Position numbers and translations under genes: made by a program
The notes under the pieces: generated by a model
The model's input: only the letters and a program-made list of their open reading frames with translations
Told to the model about the DNA's origin: nothing
Databases searched by the model: none
In this document: positions 4,973-37,446 of the stretch, one piece after another
Layout of the letters: each line of letters starts with the position of its first letter
How positions within the stretch are numbered: the stretch's first letter is position 1
From: a virus
Reading direction: 5' to 3' (one strand)
IMG/VR virus record: IMGVR_UViG_3300037961_005793
Location: 1-64,000 of that record
DNA length: 64,000 nucleotides

Positions 4973-5650
4973 ATGAACACCAACATCGATTTCAAAACAA
5001 GGGATGTGAGAGCGGCTCAGCTCTTCCGTCTACTTTCTCCTCCTCCGCCTCCACAGCCGTCCGGTGTCCCCAACGACACAGAGGTCGTCGGTAACTGGAA
5101 AGTGGAGCACTACGACGAAGCAGTCAGATGGACCTGTCTTTGCAGGCGTTCTGAGCCTTTCCTCATGCGCCCTAAAGACGTCCCTAAGGTCAAACTCCCC
5201 TTAGGTGTTGCAGCCTGCGAGGTTTGTCGTGCAGAACTTTCTTCAGCTAACTCACGTTGGAAAAGGATCGACGCTTGGCTTGAACGCTGTCGCTTCACAC
5301 TCGAAGAAGGCAGATGTCTCGAAAGAGACGACACGCCCAAACCCAACCCAAGACTCTTAAGACGCGTATATGAACGCTTTTGGAAAAAATCTGTGGGGTC
5401 TGCGGACTGTGTGAAGTCTGTGTGCTCTAATCCAAATTGTATCAATCCCTACCATCTATGTCTCGTAAAAACACCAGCAAGTCGTCTAACCAAGGAATCA
5501 GAAGAGTTTCTCAAACAGATCCTCCTTGCGGGGGCGACGACAGATACAGCTCTTCAGCTACTGCGAGAGAAGCACTCTTCCGAGTTGTCCAGGAGATCGA
5601 TTCAAAGAATAAGAAAAGATCTAAACAAGTCCAAAAACTGCGCTGGCTGA
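4973..5650 (+). CDS. Zn-binding protein with degenerate HNH (His-Me finger) and C-terminal HTH
   Basis: CLC/CEVC pairs, VKSVCSNPNCINPYHL, helical C-terminus LSRRSIQRIRK. Confidence 0.65.
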   Translation: MNTNIDFKTRDVRAAQLFRLLSPPPPPQPSGVPNDTEVVGNWKVEHYDEAVRWTCLCRRSEPFLMRPKDVPKVKLPLGVAACEVCRAELSSANSRWKRIDAWLERCRFTLEEGRCLERDDTPKPNPRLLRRVYERFWKKSVGSADCVKSVCSNPNCINPYHLCLVKTPASRLTKESEEFLKQILLAGATTDTALQLLREKHSSELSRRSIQRIRKDLNKSKNCAG

Positions 5651-5865
5651 TTTATGAGCTACAGTCGCTACAACCTACGGACGTCCTGACACTTTCTTCT
5701 TCTTTAGGTCAGTGTGAAAACACGACAAGATCCCAGCTTAAAAAGCTTGAGAAACTAGATCTTGTAATTTCAACTCGATTTGAGTTCCACAATCTCTACT
5801 GCATCAATGGCGACTTCAACCAATTCATCCAGGATATTCTCAAACATTTCTTCAGCGGAACCTAA
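5458..5865 (+). CDS. Winged-helix (ArsR-like) DNA-binding protein, start uncertain
   Basis: LSSSLGQCENTTRSQLKKLEKLDLVISTR...LYCIN wHTH pattern; nearest ATG is 5458. Confidence 0.55.
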   Translation: MSRKNTSKSSNQGIRRVSQTDPPCGGDDRYSSSATAREALFRVVQEIDSKNKKRSKQVQKLRWLIYELQSLQPTDVLTLSSSLGQCENTTRSQLKKLEKLDLVISTRFEFHNLYCINGDFNQFIQDILKHFFSGT

Positions 5866-6268
5866 ACCACGCCGCGAGTCTCTCTGGCCTGAGAAGTACA
5901 TCATCGATAACCTTCCTCCTTGGATTTACTCCGACAACCAACCGCCTTCAACAAAAGCTGAGTGTGCTGCAAAGATTTCTTCTATCGAGTACACCATTGC
6001 AGATATCGACATCCAGATGGAGATTCGTCAGTCTGAGATGTCGATCGGTAAAAGTCGGTATGACAACACATATGACTTTGAAAAGTGGAGGTTAGGTGCG
6101 CTCAAAGCAAAACAAAGTCAGTACTACTTACTTAATGCCTATCGTTACTGGCAGGTACTTAATGACAACAAGTACGATGAAGAAGACACCAAGCTAAATA
6201 AACTTATCAAGCTTCTTATCGAAGATCCTAAGGATTTTGTTCAGTTAGCTGAACGATTACTAGACTGA
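5807..6268 (+). CDS. Hypothetical helical protein
   Basis: ORF track frame 5780-6268, ATG at 5807. Confidence 0.65.
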   Translation: MATSTNSSRIFSNISSAEPKPRRESLWPEKYIIDNLPPWIYSDNQPPSTKAECAAKISSIEYTIADIDIQMEIRQSEMSIGKSRYDNTYDFEKWRLGALKAKQSQYYLLNAYRYWQVLNDNKYDEEDTKLNKLIKLLIEDPKDFVQLAERLLD

Positions 6269-6272
6269 TTGC

Positions 6273-6434
6273 GATCGTTTCGTAAGAACCGGCTTAACGA
6301 TCAAAGAGGGTTGGGGTAGCATTTTTCCGGTTTCTGCCCCCACGCAAGTCGCTCTGGTTGCCTGGTATCGGGTGATCGAGAGGAGCCCTCATGCACTTGC
6401 ACGTTCTAAAAACCCTGCTAACGTGCTGGTGCGT
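6273..6434 (+). ncRNA. Candidate structured RNA / cis-regulatory leader
   Basis: Five stems with many plus-strand G-U pairs; loop-loop complementarity AACCGG/CCGGTT. Confidence 0.55.
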
Positions 6435-6444
6435 GATAAATCAC

Positions 6445-6771
6445 ATGGACAACCCTCAACTCACAAAAGCTTTCAAAGAAATTTCAATTGCCTTAACAAA
6501 CATTGACATCTCTCTTCAGCTTCTCAGCGCAGACAAACAACGGCGTACTACAGCTTTCGTAAACAAAAAAGCAGTCGCTCAAAGACTCGGGGTTCCTTCA
6601 GTCACAGTCGACAAATTAATTTATCAAGGCATATCCTCCGGAGGTAACTCAGGACTCGTGGAGGGTAAGCACTACACAAAACTGGATCCAGCTGAGAACA
6701 ACCCTGCGAAGTTTCTGTATGATGTTCATGAAATTCTTCAAGCAGCTTGGAGCAACTTTAAATATGACTGA
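6445..6771 (+). CDS. HTH / excisionase-like DNA-binding protein
   Basis: FVNKKAVAQRLGVPSVTVDKLI...LVEGKHY. Confidence 0.6.
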   Translation: MDNPQLTKAFKEISIALTNIDISLQLLSADKQRRTTAFVNKKAVAQRLGVPSVTVDKLIYQGISSGGNSGLVEGKHYTKLDPAENNPAKFLYDVHEILQAAWSNFKYD

Positions 6772-7180
6772 ATTTAGTAAGAACGCCCAAAAGATCCAAG
6801 CTCTCTTTAAAGGCACAGAGACTGAGAGGATGCTTTCTGCGGGCATTATCCGCACCATCTTGTCAGATATGATCGATATTTACTTTCGAAACAGAAGCGC
6901 TAGAGGTCCTGGATGTCTCGTTTTTAATCCAGAAGATCCCACATCGAGTAAATACGTCACTACATACGACCTTGAGCAAGATTTAGCAATCGCTCAAGAA
7001 GCTATGGACGAAAACTTTAGTGGAATGTTTGAGCAGGTCATTAAGGTTATTGAGAAAGAAGATAACGAGGATGTGGCTATTGTCGCCATGATCCATGACG
7101 ACGGTATGCATATCCATCTTTTGGATGCTATTGAAGCAAACAAAAGAATCGACGAAGCATCCAACGGTCTTATTCTCTGA
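6764..7180 (+). CDS. Hypothetical protein
   Basis: MTEFSKNAQ..., overlaps the previous stop. Confidence 0.65.
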   Translation: MTEFSKNAQKIQALFKGTETERMLSAGIIRTILSDMIDIYFRNRSARGPGCLVFNPEDPTSSKYVTTYDLEQDLAIAQEAMDENFSGMFEQVIKVIEKEDNEDVAIVAMIHDDGMHIHLLDAIEANKRIDEASNGLIL

Positions 7181-7183
7181 ACC

Positions 7184-7453
7184 ATGCCACACGTTTCCCA
7201 AGGTAGAGCAAAACCCAAGTTCAAAGTGGGCGACAAGGTCAAGGAAAAAAGTCGAATCAACAACGTTTGGGTAACCGCCAACGCTGCTTGTAAATCAAAG
7301 TGGTTCAAAGACAGAACTGTCGGCATCGTTCAAGAGGTCTTTACAAAACCTACGAAGGGTGGTGCCCAGTACTTTTATGTAAAAGTTGCTTGGCTTAATT
7401 CGAATCACGTCAGCACTCACAGTCAAATGAGACTTGAAGCTGTTGAAGATTAA
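7184..7453 (+). CDS. Hypothetical protein (SH3/KOW-like)
   Basis: PKFKVGDKVKEK...GIVQEV. Confidence 0.6.
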   Translation: MPHVSQGRAKPKFKVGDKVKEKSRINNVWVTANAACKSKWFKDRTVGIVQEVFTKPTKGGAQYFYVKVAWLNSNHVSTHSQMRLEAVED

Positions 7454-8028
7454 TGCTGGCGTCAAAAGATTTTGTCTCTCCTCCAGAACTTGTTGCTGCT
7501 GCAGCTTCTTTGTTTGGTGGAGAGATAAGTCTTGATCCGGCTAGCAGTAAACACGCTAACGAAGTTGTACAAGCGCAAAGATATTTCAACTGGAAGGACA
7601 ACGGTTTAAAACAAGACTGGAAAAGCAAAAACGTATATCTTTACCCTCCAAGAGATATATCACTCAAAGCTGAGCAACCTAAATCAGACAGGTTATTTAC
7701 AAAAACCTCTTACTTCAAAAAATCAAACCAGAGAGTTTGGCTTGAAGTTGCGTATAAGAAATGGCTCAAACAAGAGTTTGATGAGGCCATAGTTTTTATA
7801 ACCTCATCTGAAGTAGCTCTTATATCCACGCAGAAAACCGGTATCGATTTACCGATGTGTGTTCTTAAAGAACATCCAAGGTTGCTTCACGACAGCGAAA
7901 AACTTGAGCCTTTAAAGCACTCAAAAGTGTTTGGTTTCGTTTTTTATATGCCTTCTACTCAGGACTATCAGAAAAGAATCCATGATTTTCACCAACAATA
8001 TAGTGACCTCGGTCGTGTATTCCTATAA
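7453..8028 (+). CDS. Phage Dam-family N6-adenine methyltransferase-like protein, catalytic motif degenerate
   Basis: LDPASS...DNGLKQDW...VYLYPPR where NPPY is expected. Confidence 0.7.
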   Translation: MLASKDFVSPPELVAAAASLFGGEISLDPASSKHANEVVQAQRYFNWKDNGLKQDWKSKNVYLYPPRDISLKAEQPKSDRLFTKTSYFKKSNQRVWLEVAYKKWLKQEFDEAIVFITSSEVALISTQKTGIDLPMCVLKEHPRLLHDSEKLEPLKHSKVFGFVFYMPSTQDYQKRIHDFHQQYSDLGRVFL

Positions 8029-8266
8029 GACTTTCTTGCGAACCCCAAGACTCATCCGGTCCATAAGTGTCGTAGGCTCCGAAACCAATCCCCACGGGGC
8101 GTGACTTTTGCATCGATTGACGCTTTTCATTCCTTAAAGCTGCTCGATCTGCTGCTTCAGAGAACAATTTTCCTGCCAATCTGAAAGCAGGATTTCTCCC
8201 TACATGCTCAGAGCGTCTGAATATATTACGCTCTGATCTTTTTTCTACAGCACTTCGAGACAGCAT
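7955..8266 (-). CDS. Hypothetical late protein
   Basis: 103 aa directly after 8269-9123; contains RLAG. Confidence 0.55.
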   Translation of the reverse strand: MLSRSAVEKRSERNIFRRSEHVGRNPAFRLAGKLFSEAADRAALRNEKRQSMQKSRPVGIGFGAYDTYGPDESWGSQESLIGIHDRGHYIVGENHGFFSDSPE

Positions 8267-8268
8267 TA

Positions 8269-9123
8269 TCAGGCACCAAAGTCCATTAATCGATCTATTT
8301 CAGGAGAGTCAGCAAAAAATCCAGCCATACGCTGCCTGCCGTAGCGAGAACCAGGGCTACCAGCACCGTAGATAAATTCTTGAGACTGCCCGTCCGAATA
8401 ATCCCTGAGTCTCTTATTTGCTTCATCAAAAAATCGATTAAAGTCTGGCTGTAATTTACTTGTATCTGCCTCTACAACAGGAGGAGCAGTAGCGACATCC
8501 ATGTAATTTTGACGATTAAGGGCACTGTACTTACCCATAGTGTCAAACATTTTATTAGTCGCTTTATCCCCGTAGTCTTCTAAAGAAGTGGGGCCGATCG
8601 CATTTGGATCAAAACCGAAAAGCTGGTTGTATCCTCTTTGAGCTGCGGGTTCAATGTAATCCTTATAACGATTCCTGAATTCTTGAACTGCGTCAGGAAC
8701 AGTATTACCTGTTAAATATGCGATGTCGTTAGCAATACCACCGAGTTGTTCAAGTAATTTTCCATACTCTGTATCTACCTTCGCACGAGCTTCGTCAGCA
8801 TATTTAGGGTCAAATGGATTGCCCAAACCCATATAACCACCGGCTTCCTCGTCGTCTCCACCACGGAAAGTTCGAACAATATCACCGAGTGAACCACCTA
8901 GTGTGCTGATGGAACTCCCAAGATCCCCGAGACCTCCTCCTCCCCCTCCGAAGAAACTTGTTCCCAAAGTTTGGGGTACAGCGCCTGCGGGGATTTGGTA
9001 ATCCAGCCCTCCAAGACCACCGAAATCGAAGTCAAAACCGCCCCCACCCATTTGAAAGGTAGGAGTGCTACCAGGGACGTTATAGCTGAAATTGGAGGGG
9101 AAGTTACCTAAGGAGGGAGACAC
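8269..9123 (-). CDS. Gly-rich putative internal virion protein
   Basis: 284 aa low complexity; TATAAT 22 nt upstream. Confidence 0.65.
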   Translation of the reverse strand: MSPSLGNFPSNFSYNVPGSTPTFQMGGGGFDFDFGGLGGLDYQIPAGAVPQTLGTSFFGGGGGGLGDLGSSISTLGGSLGDIVRTFRGGDDEEAGGYMGLGNPFDPKYADEARAKVDTEYGKLLEQLGGIANDIAYLTGNTVPDAVQEFRNRYKDYIEPAAQRGYNQLFGFDPNAIGPTSLEDYGDKATNKMFDTMGKYSALNRQNYMDVATAPPVVEADTSKLQPDFNRFFDEANKRLRDYSDGQSQEFIYGAGSPGSRYGRQRMAGFFADSPEIDRLMDFGA

Positions 9124-35826: not shown

Positions 35827-36597
35827 TCAGAACCCGAGATGCTTGCGGCGGACAAAGCTTAAATCGAATGTCGTGAAACTCGGTGGCATTTCCTCAAGAT
35901 TGAATGGTGTTTTATAAGTTTCCCCCTCAACGTGAGACTGCCAGGACTCATTCCACTTCAGATGAAGATATCGCTTGTTCAGCTCGTGGGCTACGTGAAT
36001 ACCTTGAGCAATCGCTGGTTCGGATCGCCAAGTCTGTGAGCCATCGGAATAATCGTTCTTTTTAGAACCGTGGTAGTAATCAGCTTCAAGATCAAGTATT
36101 CGTTTAACGTCGTCATGGATAAACCTCATGCCGTAGTCCATGTCTTCGCAATAACCGGGATATAGATTTTCATCAAAAAGACCGTACTTCTGAACCATCC
36201 AATCTTTTAACAAGAAAATATCCCAACCACCGCCTGAACCATGGACAATACCGACTTCCTGGTCTTGAGCTTTCTCATTCATTTCTTTGAGAAAACCTGG
36301 CTCAAACCTCACATCGTGGTTTGAAATAACCCAGTAAGGGGCTTTCATAAAACATTTAATAATTAAGTTCCAAGCGCCACTACAACCAACATTTGCAGGG
36401 AGGTGGCAAATATGTACGTTCTTTACGTGACTATTAGGTATCTCTTTTAGGAGATCGACTTCATGATTAATTTGACCGCGACCGTTGTTATTAAAAACGA
36501 CAAAGTTTTCAACTGGATAATCGATACTCATGTACAGACGATGCAGCCAGTAAGGAGTATTAACGATCGCAGTACCTAGAACAGGAATGCTATTCAT
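35827..36597 (-). CDS. Glycosyltransferase family 2-like
   Basis: NVGCSGAWN, SNHDV, GLFDENLYPGYCEDMDY. Confidence 0.82.
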   Translation of the reverse strand: MNSIPVLGTAIVNTPYWLHRLYMSIDYPVENFVVFNNNGRGQINHEVDLLKEIPNSHVKNVHICHLPANVGCSGAWNLIIKCFMKAPYWVISNHDVRFEPGFLKEMNEKAQDQEVGIVHGSGGGWDIFLLKDWMVQKYGLFDENLYPGYCEDMDYGMRFIHDDVKRILDLEADYYHGSKKNDYSDGSQTWRSEPAIAQGIHVAHELNKRYLHLKWNESWQSHVEGETYKTPFNLEEMPPSFTTFDLSFVRRKHLGF

Positions 36598-37360: not shown

Positions 37361-37446
37361 TGCCTGAGGCGAGACTTGAACTCGCATGACCTTTGCAGGT
37401 CGAGGGATTTTAAGTCCCTTGTGTCTACCGATTCCACCACTCAGGC
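37361..37446 (-). tRNA. trnL: tRNA-Leu (anticodon TAA), CCA not encoded
   Basis: GCCTGAG acceptor stem, GGTAGAC D-loop, AGGGA-CTTAAAA-TCCCT anticodon arm, long variable arm, GTTCAAG T-loop. Confidence 0.95.

Follow-up and report, generated by a model that had tools for sequence, protein, structure and literature searches.

A conserved pseudoknotted RNA directly precedes a winged helix-turn-helix gene in an uncultured lineage of probable cyanophages

What occupies the 176-nt gap between the end of one open reading frame (ORF) at 6268 and the start codon of the next at 6445 in the early operon of an uncultured phage, and how might it act on the gene that follows? The gap lies in a stretch of 64,000 nucleotides (the window; positions 1 to 64,000 of IMG/VR virus record IMGVR_UViG_3300037961_005793), which is part of an 80,883-bp record. 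The plus-strand early operon extends from 4973 to 8028 and encodes, in order, an HNH-like protein, two small proteins, the RNA element described here, a 108-aa helix-turn-helix (HTH) protein, a PDDEXK-like protein, an 89-aa protein, and a Dam-like methyltransferase. Because its TerL shares 44.7% identity with the TerL of its nearest cultured relative, Synechococcus phage S-EIV1, and because DNA of this phage occurs in marine metagenomes, the phage is probably an uncultured marine relative of the S-EIV1 cyanophage lineage. The cyanophage link rests on the TerL similarity to S-EIV1; the “NblA-like” genes named in a preliminary description of this DNA found no counterpart, as a search of the whole virus record with Pfam NblA (PF04485) gave no match at an E value of ≤1. 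A tRNA gene at 37361-37446 (minus strand; 58.6 bits) is the sole Rfam gathering-level match in the window.

The preliminary description had drawn five stems (P1 to P5) in the gap and two loop complementarities, AACCGG (6287-92) with CCGGTT (6327-32) and AACCCT (6411-16) with AGGGTT (6307-12), and had proposed that they belong to a pseudoknotted, riboswitch-like or orphan RNA. All five stems are present at the positions proposed, as are both complementarities. The 176-nt intergenic RNA, folded as the plus strand, reached -62.7 kcal/mol (z = -2.45; 3 of 200 shuffles were equal or better), whereas the opposite strand folded no better than its shuffles (z = 0.06), an asymmetry that fits the location of the G-U pairs on the plus strand. 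The core at 6273-6390 gave a z of -2.0 by itself. For comparative analysis, a covariance model (R1) was built from 25 distinct sequences with a hand-set structure. The set of homologues came to 78 distinct sequences in all, taken from viral metagenome contigs, and pairing statistics were computed on a 64-sequence model alignment. In that alignment, 89.2% of paired cells were complementary, versus 63.1% after shuffling; compensatory double changes occurred in 31 of 34 nested pairs; and the covariation score was 0.711, compared with 0.231 for shuffled alignments and 0.10 to 0.18 for controls in which the pairing partner was slid. P1 to P4 and the loop-loop pairing are thus supported far beyond chance. 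Both tests that the preliminary description had named, covariation among homologues and folding energy relative to shuffles, came out better than the shuffled controls, and its central claim of a genuine, conserved, pseudoknotted multistem RNA on the plus strand is borne out. R1 also gave a second, weak match in the window at 35861-35981 (plus strand; 14.3 bits, E = 0.5), probably by chance.

The core (plus strand, ~118 nt) consists of the P1 hairpin followed by a three-way junction formed by P2, P3, and P4. The comparative data kept the P2 and P3 helices of the preliminary description and changed their exact ends, with P2 shortened to 6 bp and P3 redrawn. In the consensus, P1 has 7 to 9 bp and is joined by a linker of 3 to 5 nt to P2 (6 bp); P3 has 4 + 3 bp separated by a small internal loop; J3/4 has 9 nt; P4 has ~13 bp with one bulge; and J4/2 has 1 to 3 nt. 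The features of the locus are as follows.

6261..6266 (+): TAGACT hexamer, -10-like, overlapping the end of the upstream ORF, 6 nt before P1
6273..6302 (+): P1 hairpin; stem 6273-79/6296-6302, with an inner pair, G6282-C6293
6283..6288 and 6287..6292 (+): P1 loop; UAAGAA and the kissing bases AACCGG, respectively; family motif GNAA-(G/C)AA-N4
6306..6311 (+): P2, 5' strand; partner strand 6385-6390; closing helix of the three-way junction
6312..6342 (+): P3; P3a 6312-15/6339-42, P3b 6319-21/6335-37, GUA/C internal loop
6322..6334 (+): P3 loop, 13 nt, UUUU-N-N4-UUUC; kissing bases CCGGUU at 6327-32
6343..6348 (+): lone pair C6343-G6348 within J3/4, closing a GCAA (GNRA-type) tetraloop
6352..6382 (+): P4 hairpin; apex 6363-6370, “tetraloop” GUAU at 6365-68
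6385..6390 (+): P2, 3' strand, GCCCUC
6391..6434 (+): P5, a 44-nt lineage-specific hairpin between P2 and the start codon, outside the conserved motif
6445..6771 (+): gene for the 108-aa protein; winged HTH (wHTH) of excisionase/MerR-like type, preceded by a long N-terminal helix

Double changes were found in all seven stem pairs of P1, compensatory changes in all six pairs of P2 (91% of its cells are paired), and covariation in all seven pairs of P3, the loop of which has invariant UUUU and UUUC segments. About 25 unpaired nucleotides are invariant across the element. The loops of P1 and P3 pair with each other, as had been proposed: the N4 of the P1 loop is complementary to the N4 of the P3 loop in each of the 74 distinct full-length sequences (20 different combinations), and the flanking AA/UU extend this kissing helix to six pairs in total. 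These six pseudoknot pairs scored 0.548, versus 0.177 when shuffled (values from the uncorrected model alignment). A further motif, absent from the preliminary description, lies in J3/4. The two columns of its lone pair (98 and 103 of the alignment) read CG in 25 sequences, AU in 18, UA in 8, GC in 7, and other combinations in 6; their covariation score was 1.142, against 0.227 after shuffling, and the enclosed G-Y-A-A is invariant. By this pattern of sequence variation, the J3/4 motif is a lone-pair GNRA turn.

The stem of P4 covaries, and below the apex it holds an invariant tandem of wobble pairs (U6359·G6374 and G6360·U6373) followed by two invariant C-G pairs (C6361-G6372 and C6362-G6371); neither the tandem nor the self-complementarity of the apex had been noted in the preliminary description. 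The four bases of the loop are themselves complementary to one another. Positions 1 and 4 and positions 2 and 3 could pair in all 128 cells (100%); 45 double changes were counted, and the self-pairing score of the loop was 0.956, versus 0.409 when shuffled. The loop is a Watson-Crick palindrome in 65 of 74 sequences and is self-complementary in all 74 if G·U is counted. Six Watson-Crick loop types were seen (GUAC, GCGC, ACGU, GAUC, AGCU, and AUAU), and the remaining nine loops (GUGC, GUAU, and AUGU) are G·U intermediates between them. Read as DNA, 41 of 57 distinct P4 sequences have a perfect palindrome in their central 12 nt. Since a hairpin cannot pair the bases of its own tetraloop, this covariation points to intermolecular pairing, and the simplest reading of it is that two copies of the RNA would pair through the P4 apex. 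The tolerance of G·U in the loop, together with the G·U pairs directly beneath it, argues that selection acts on RNA rather than on DNA. RNAcofold placed the homodimer 11 to 20 kcal/mol below two monomers, a gain that is expected of any palindromic hairpin and so speaks to plausibility only. A fully extended P4 duplex (30 bp) seems hard to reconcile sterically with the conserved junction; for this reason, we infer that an apex-to-apex contact, similar to that of the retroviral DIS, is the more likely form of pairing. In the retroviral DIS, a hairpin apex stays self-complementary while its sequence changes, and the P4 apex resembles it in this respect.

The protein encoded downstream found no family in sequence searches of Pfam, PHROGs, and PDB. 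Its AF2 model (pLDDT of 86) matched a putative excisionase (2kvv; E = 0.011) best in Foldseek, followed by RacA, TerS-N, RdfS, and Xis. The family has ~105 aa and is highly conserved, recognition helix included. To relate RNA and gene, we approached the distribution from both sides. A search with the downstream protein yielded 35 viral loci, each of which contains a recognizable homologue of the RNA. Independently of the protein, IMG/VR was scanned with a fixed-length DNA pattern derived from the invariant positions of the RNA, and at least 117 stretches were found. Among the matches listed, R1 matched 62 of 90 loci on new contigs (61 of them with an E value of ≤1.3e-9), and every RNA was then followed by the same gene family 4 to 27 nt on. 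Finally, from the 118 loci found with a protein profile, the best 80 were taken, 79 of which had upstream sequence. In 78 of these 79 protein-ascertained loci, the RNA lies directly upstream on the same strand, in agreement with the earlier proposal that it is the leader of the HTH gene. One locus, L207 (IMGVR_UViG_3300025141_000055, 1140-1190), has lost the whole ~120-nt RNA by a clean deletion and keeps the stop codon of the upstream ORF, a TAAACT hexamer, a CCCCUCC-like pyrimidine tract, and the wHTH ATG within ~40 nt. This arrangement fits the RNA being a dispensable regulatory addition behind a promoter.

The RNA is confined to one uncultured phage lineage. A pattern scan of one genome each of 185,579 prokaryote species gave four matches, none of which was confirmed by the covariance model; the pattern used for these genomes required AAGAA and had the clade with AACAA outside its reach. 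Among cultured phages (50,697 records), blastn with positions 5000 to 9000 and tblastn with the wHTH protein gave no match, and S-EIV1 has neither an R1 match nor a wHTH protein. The gene order around the element is conserved between the window (4973 to 8028) and several relatives (loci L007, L024, L027, L030, L035, and L102). It runs from an HNH-like gene (~230 aa) through genes for proteins of ~110 aa and ~140 to 160 aa (the latter with an LPxWIYxDN motif), in some of these loci with an extra HNH-like 141-aa gene before the RNA; on the 3' side follow the wHTH gene, a gene for ~138 aa, in some loci one for 89 to 103 aa, and the Dam-like gene (192 aa). The RNA sits at the same internal boundary of the operon in every locus compared.

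Sequence conservation extends just upstream of the RNA. A TARAMT hexamer lies 5 to 9 nt (mode, 6) before the first base of P1 in 61 of 61 distinct upstream contexts, and it is kept across three reading frames of the upstream ORF, two unrelated families of such ORFs, and amino acid replacements. Beside it we found no conservation at -35 and no inverted repeat overlapping it, and a scan with the sigma-70 consensus called no promoter at 6261. The hexamer may well be a -10 element with transcription starting at the base of P1. The element is covered by metatranscriptome contigs, three of which (X16, X17, and X19) run through the domain. X19 (6309-6488) bridges P2 to the ORF. X16 (6188-6380), identical in sequence to the window, runs from the upstream ORF to P4 and crosses the hexamer, so the RNA may also be part of a longer transcript of the operon; DNA in the library is another possible explanation. 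These expression data are Logan contigs, which show no starts, ends, or levels and whose uncovered stretches are uninformative.

On the 3' side, 4 to 27 nt separate the 3' strand of P2 from the AUG in most relatives. The linkers are poor in G (7% of bases in 50 linkers, three P5-bearing ones included), and a Shine-Dalgarno (SD)-like 4-mer was present in 0 of 50. SD sequences are rare in this phage as a whole (6 of 49 ORFs), so their absence is not special to the wHTH gene. Many relatives have U-rich tracts after P2. In the window, the linker is filled by P5, which leaves 10 nt before the ATG at 6445; as P5 is a hairpin, P2 and the AUG stay effectively close in this clade as well. P5 is indeed a hairpin in the window (z = -3.9) and in L003 (z = -3.4), is weak in L004 (z = -1.5), and is absent from L010 (z = -0.15). 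It is confined to close relatives of the window (L002 and L003) and is missing in all other clades, so the part of the earlier proposal that made it belong to the conserved motif does not stand. The suggested switch, in which the P5 loop and P2 would pair in a mutually exclusive way, finds no comparative support for the same reason. Nor did an unsystematic comparison of alternative helices reveal a conserved mutually exclusive structure that could serve as an expression platform. The earlier anatomy is therefore largely right, and the switch model is without support. An in-frame ATG at 6391, inside P5, would lengthen the wHTH ORF to 126 aa; it reads ACG in L002, which makes 6445 the conserved start.

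Four further candidates for a functional pairing or signal around the core were tried and rejected. Pairing of the upstream hexamer with J3/4 (GACU/AGUC) showed no covariation. Mimicry of the 16S 3' end by the P2 3' strand and the linker was seen in a single clade only. A displaced SD formed by GGUG or GAGGAG of the 3' strand of P4 would have too long a spacing, and other clades lack the motif. P2 does not qualify as an intrinsic terminator, since its stem closes a multiloop and no U-run directly abuts it.

The preliminary description had advised a comparison with Rfam. At the gathering thresholds of Rfam 15, neither the window nor 15 diverse relatives gave any family at the element; it is absent from Rfam 15 and may stand anonymously among 10,006 candidate structured RNAs from IMG/VR (PMC10690425). 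In a permissive E-value scan, the only model to touch it was Atu_At1 (RF02496; “Rhizobiales sRNA”), with 15.9 bits and an E value of 3.1 against a gathering threshold of 60. A whole-genome search with Atu_At1 again gave 15.9 bits for the window element, compared with 115.3 bits for the true copy on pAtC58, and the weak match is reciprocal, R1 scoring 15.4 bits against Atu_At1 with 22 positions of P4 deleted. What the two RNAs have in common is specific. In both, an AA-N4 loop (AACCGG) pairs with a 13-nt loop, UUUU-N-N4-UUUC (UUUU-U-CCGG-UUUC in each case), and rhizobial homologues L163 and L165 keep the kissing pairing through sequence changes (AACCGA/UCGGUU and AACCGGG/CCCGGUU). Atu_At1 is likewise a 5'-UTR element, located 55 nt upstream of ligD on pAtC58. 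Unlike the phage element, Atu_At1 has its own outer helix enclosing both hairpins as well as a small GCC...GGC hairpin (P1 of the window lies outside P2), and it lacks P4, with its GGUG/tandem G·U and palindromic apex, and the UAAGAA loop motif. Its genomic setting also differs, consisting of alphaproteobacterial plasmid genes (ligD and SDR), near CsbD, PRC-barrel, and ECF sigma genes, without phage genes. Judged from sequence and pairing, these are separate families that have a tertiary module in common. The Atu_At1 copy at L154:1513-1611 (minus strand) corresponds to NC_003064.2 55165-55272 (minus strand), in the 5' UTR of ligD. Homologues of Atu_At1 occur on ~200 rhizobial plasmids before ligD or an SDR gene, and Atu_At1 resembles a leader that regulates stress or repair genes in cis rather than a free sRNA; a literature search on Atu_At1 found no paper.

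Several characterized RNAs resemble the element in part. Junctions of the purine-riboswitch type also lie in 5' UTRs and combine a closing helix beside the initiation region with two other helices and a loop-loop contact that covaries; they differ in that the kissing partner of our element, P1, lies outside the junction, and here there is no metabolic gene and no Rfam match. Our leader resembles the pRNA of phi29 in having a three-way junction and a loop-loop “code” of 4 nt that covaries. However, the present phage is not phi29-like (its TerL is closest to that of S-EIV1), there is no Rfam match to pRNA, the element is an mRNA leader and not a gene at a genome end, and the intermolecular pairing is in our case suggested by covariation. 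In the P4 CI RNA and the c4 RNAs of P1 and P7, a promoter and leader carry complementary boxes that covary as an “address.” Those RNAs use terminator hairpins or pairing with a ribosome-binding site (RBS), whereas here neither loop contains an RBS and there is no terminator. A functional parallel may be offered by the phage HTH regulators Aca1 and Aca2, which bind structured motifs in their own 5' UTRs (PMC13551039). Those motifs begin right after the transcription start site and end ~20 nt or less before the start codon, the control is translational and suited to rising gene dosage, and the HTH gene is in the same operon (PMC13551039). The present element shares with them the phage early operon, the 5'-UTR RNA motif near a start codon, and an HTH protein encoded in the operon. 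The Aca motifs are simple hairpins that arise from the inverted repeat of the promoter (PMC13551039); here, by contrast, the RNA is a 118-nt pseudoknotted three-way junction whose stems contain G·U pairs and vary in sequence, the hexamer lies in no operator-like repeat, the leader is followed by the HTH gene as first cistron, and RNA binding is known for Aca alone.

We consider it about an even chance that the element is a cis-acting translational leader, most likely with a macromolecular trigger. The association with one gene on one strand, the short and constrained distance to the AUG, and the loss of the RNA as a unit argue for action in cis, and the position of P2, which ends a few bases from an AUG without an SD, favors control of translation. 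In such a leader, transcription would start from its own -10-like element, TAGACT (6261-66), and the RNA domain would make up essentially the whole 5' leader of the wHTH gene. The 6-bp kissing of the P1 and P3 loops would lock the fold, and the folded domain would gate access of the 30S subunit and so set the translation, perhaps also the stability, of the wHTH mRNA. One candidate for the trigger is a second copy of the leader, which could bind through the P4 apex and make self-association dependent on dose; another is the wHTH protein itself, following the Aca1/Aca2 precedent. The self-complementary P4 apex speaks for an RNA-RNA or protein partner, and a metabolite is therefore less likely. 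A more specific version, which we put forward tentatively and regard as somewhat doubtful, makes the leader a device for RNA-RNA self-recognition, in which the P4 apex pairs with a second transcript and a further pairing in trans may involve the loop code of P1 and P3. The apex would then serve as a variable, always self-complementary “address” of 8 to 12 nt above the invariant tandem G·U.

Other explanations of the conservation have to be weighed against a translational leader. A riboswitch that senses a metabolite or ion, with ligand-dependent folding of P2 exposing or hiding the AUG-proximal linker, would account for the complex pseudoknotted fold with its invariant unpaired nucleotides, for the presence of a covarying fold like that of an aptamer in the 5' UTR, immediately before an ORF, and for a closing helix that abuts the initiation region. 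Such sensing is nevertheless unlikely in an RNA associated with a single gene family that encodes a DNA-binding protein, with no metabolic or transport gene, in an operon whose HNH-like, PDDEXK-like, and Dam-like products suggest no ligand pathway. The restriction to a single uncultured phage lineage, with nothing confirmed in the 185,579 species genomes, and the lack of a conserved alternative pairing also count against it, and riboswitch logic leaves the self-complementary apex of P4 unexplained. The element might instead be a stand-alone or processed RNA that is simply encoded beside the gene; it might form oligomers, assemble into an RNP with the wHTH protein, or be a same-strand “address” RNA that acts in trans on sister transcripts in the manner of P4 CI and P1 c4. 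In favor of this, the N4 “addresses” and the P4 apex vary while complementarity is kept. The -10-like hexamer right at the 5' end, the burial of that end in P1, and the U-rich tracts after P2 in many relatives are also compatible with a free RNA. There is, however, no intrinsic terminator (P2 encloses a multiloop and lies 3 to 6 nt from any U-run), the spacing to the AUG is tightly constrained, and contig X19 bridges into the ORF, which together make a free RNA unlikely.

The location between two ORFs of a conserved operon could also suggest a self-cleaving ribozyme, or an RNA-processing signal, that separates early-operon cistrons. Although the compact junction-plus-pseudoknot fold, the invariant junction bases, and the lack of a conserved alternative fold would suit a ribozyme, no known ribozyme class of Rfam 15 matches, the conserved -10-like hexamer suggests a 5' end made by initiation and not by cleavage, and RNA contigs X16, X17, and X19 pass through the domain; we regard cleavage as improbable. 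Very improbable, in our view, is a put-like RNA that acts in cis on RNA polymerase in processive antitermination, letting it read through the genes for the downstream 138-aa protein and the Dam-like methyltransferase. The element is promoter proximal and heads a block of three to four genes that ends at the Dam-like gene, as would be expected of such an RNA, but antitermination has no need of a strict, short spacing to the AUG, no plus-strand terminators are evident in the operon of the window before 7490, and put RNAs have a two-hairpin architecture, unlike this leader. Least credible of all is that the conservation reflects a DNA-level element, such as a palindromic operator, an origin, or a recombination site. 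The frequent perfect palindromes at the center of P4 and the inverted repeat of P1 adjoining a promoter-like hexamer are what such an element would offer. It would predict Watson-Crick-only covariation, equal on both strands, and this is contradicted by the frequent strand-specific G·U pairs, two of them invariant in P4, and by the wobble intermediates in the P4 loop. In addition, the minus strand folds no better than shuffles, the nonpalindromic kissing loop and the lone-pair GNRA turn covary, and the bases of the palindrome vary freely while the recognition helix of the candidate binder is conserved.

The element thus adds to the known structured RNAs a well-supported class without an Rfam family; its members, more than 100 in IMG/VR, come from probable cyanophages that form a widespread, uncultured marine lineage. 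It brings together a rare combination of features (a hairpin outside the junction that kisses one of its arms, a GNRA turn closed by a lone pair within the junction, and an invariant tandem G·U), along with covariation inside a “tetraloop,” which is explained by intermolecular pairing alone. Comparison with it also revealed that Atu_At1, listed as an “sRNA” in Rfam, is located in a 5' UTR and uses the same kissing-loop module. If pairing through the apex is real, the leader would be a small, tractable natural model of RNA homodimerization in gene control and possibly an RNA-only dosage sensor for a phage early regulator. Should self-recognition hold, translation of the regulator would track the concentration and the identity of its own mRNA, distinguishing self from a coinfecting relative; sensing of this kind, without a protein or metabolite sensor, would give a DNA phage an undescribed way to gauge gene dosage or kinship.
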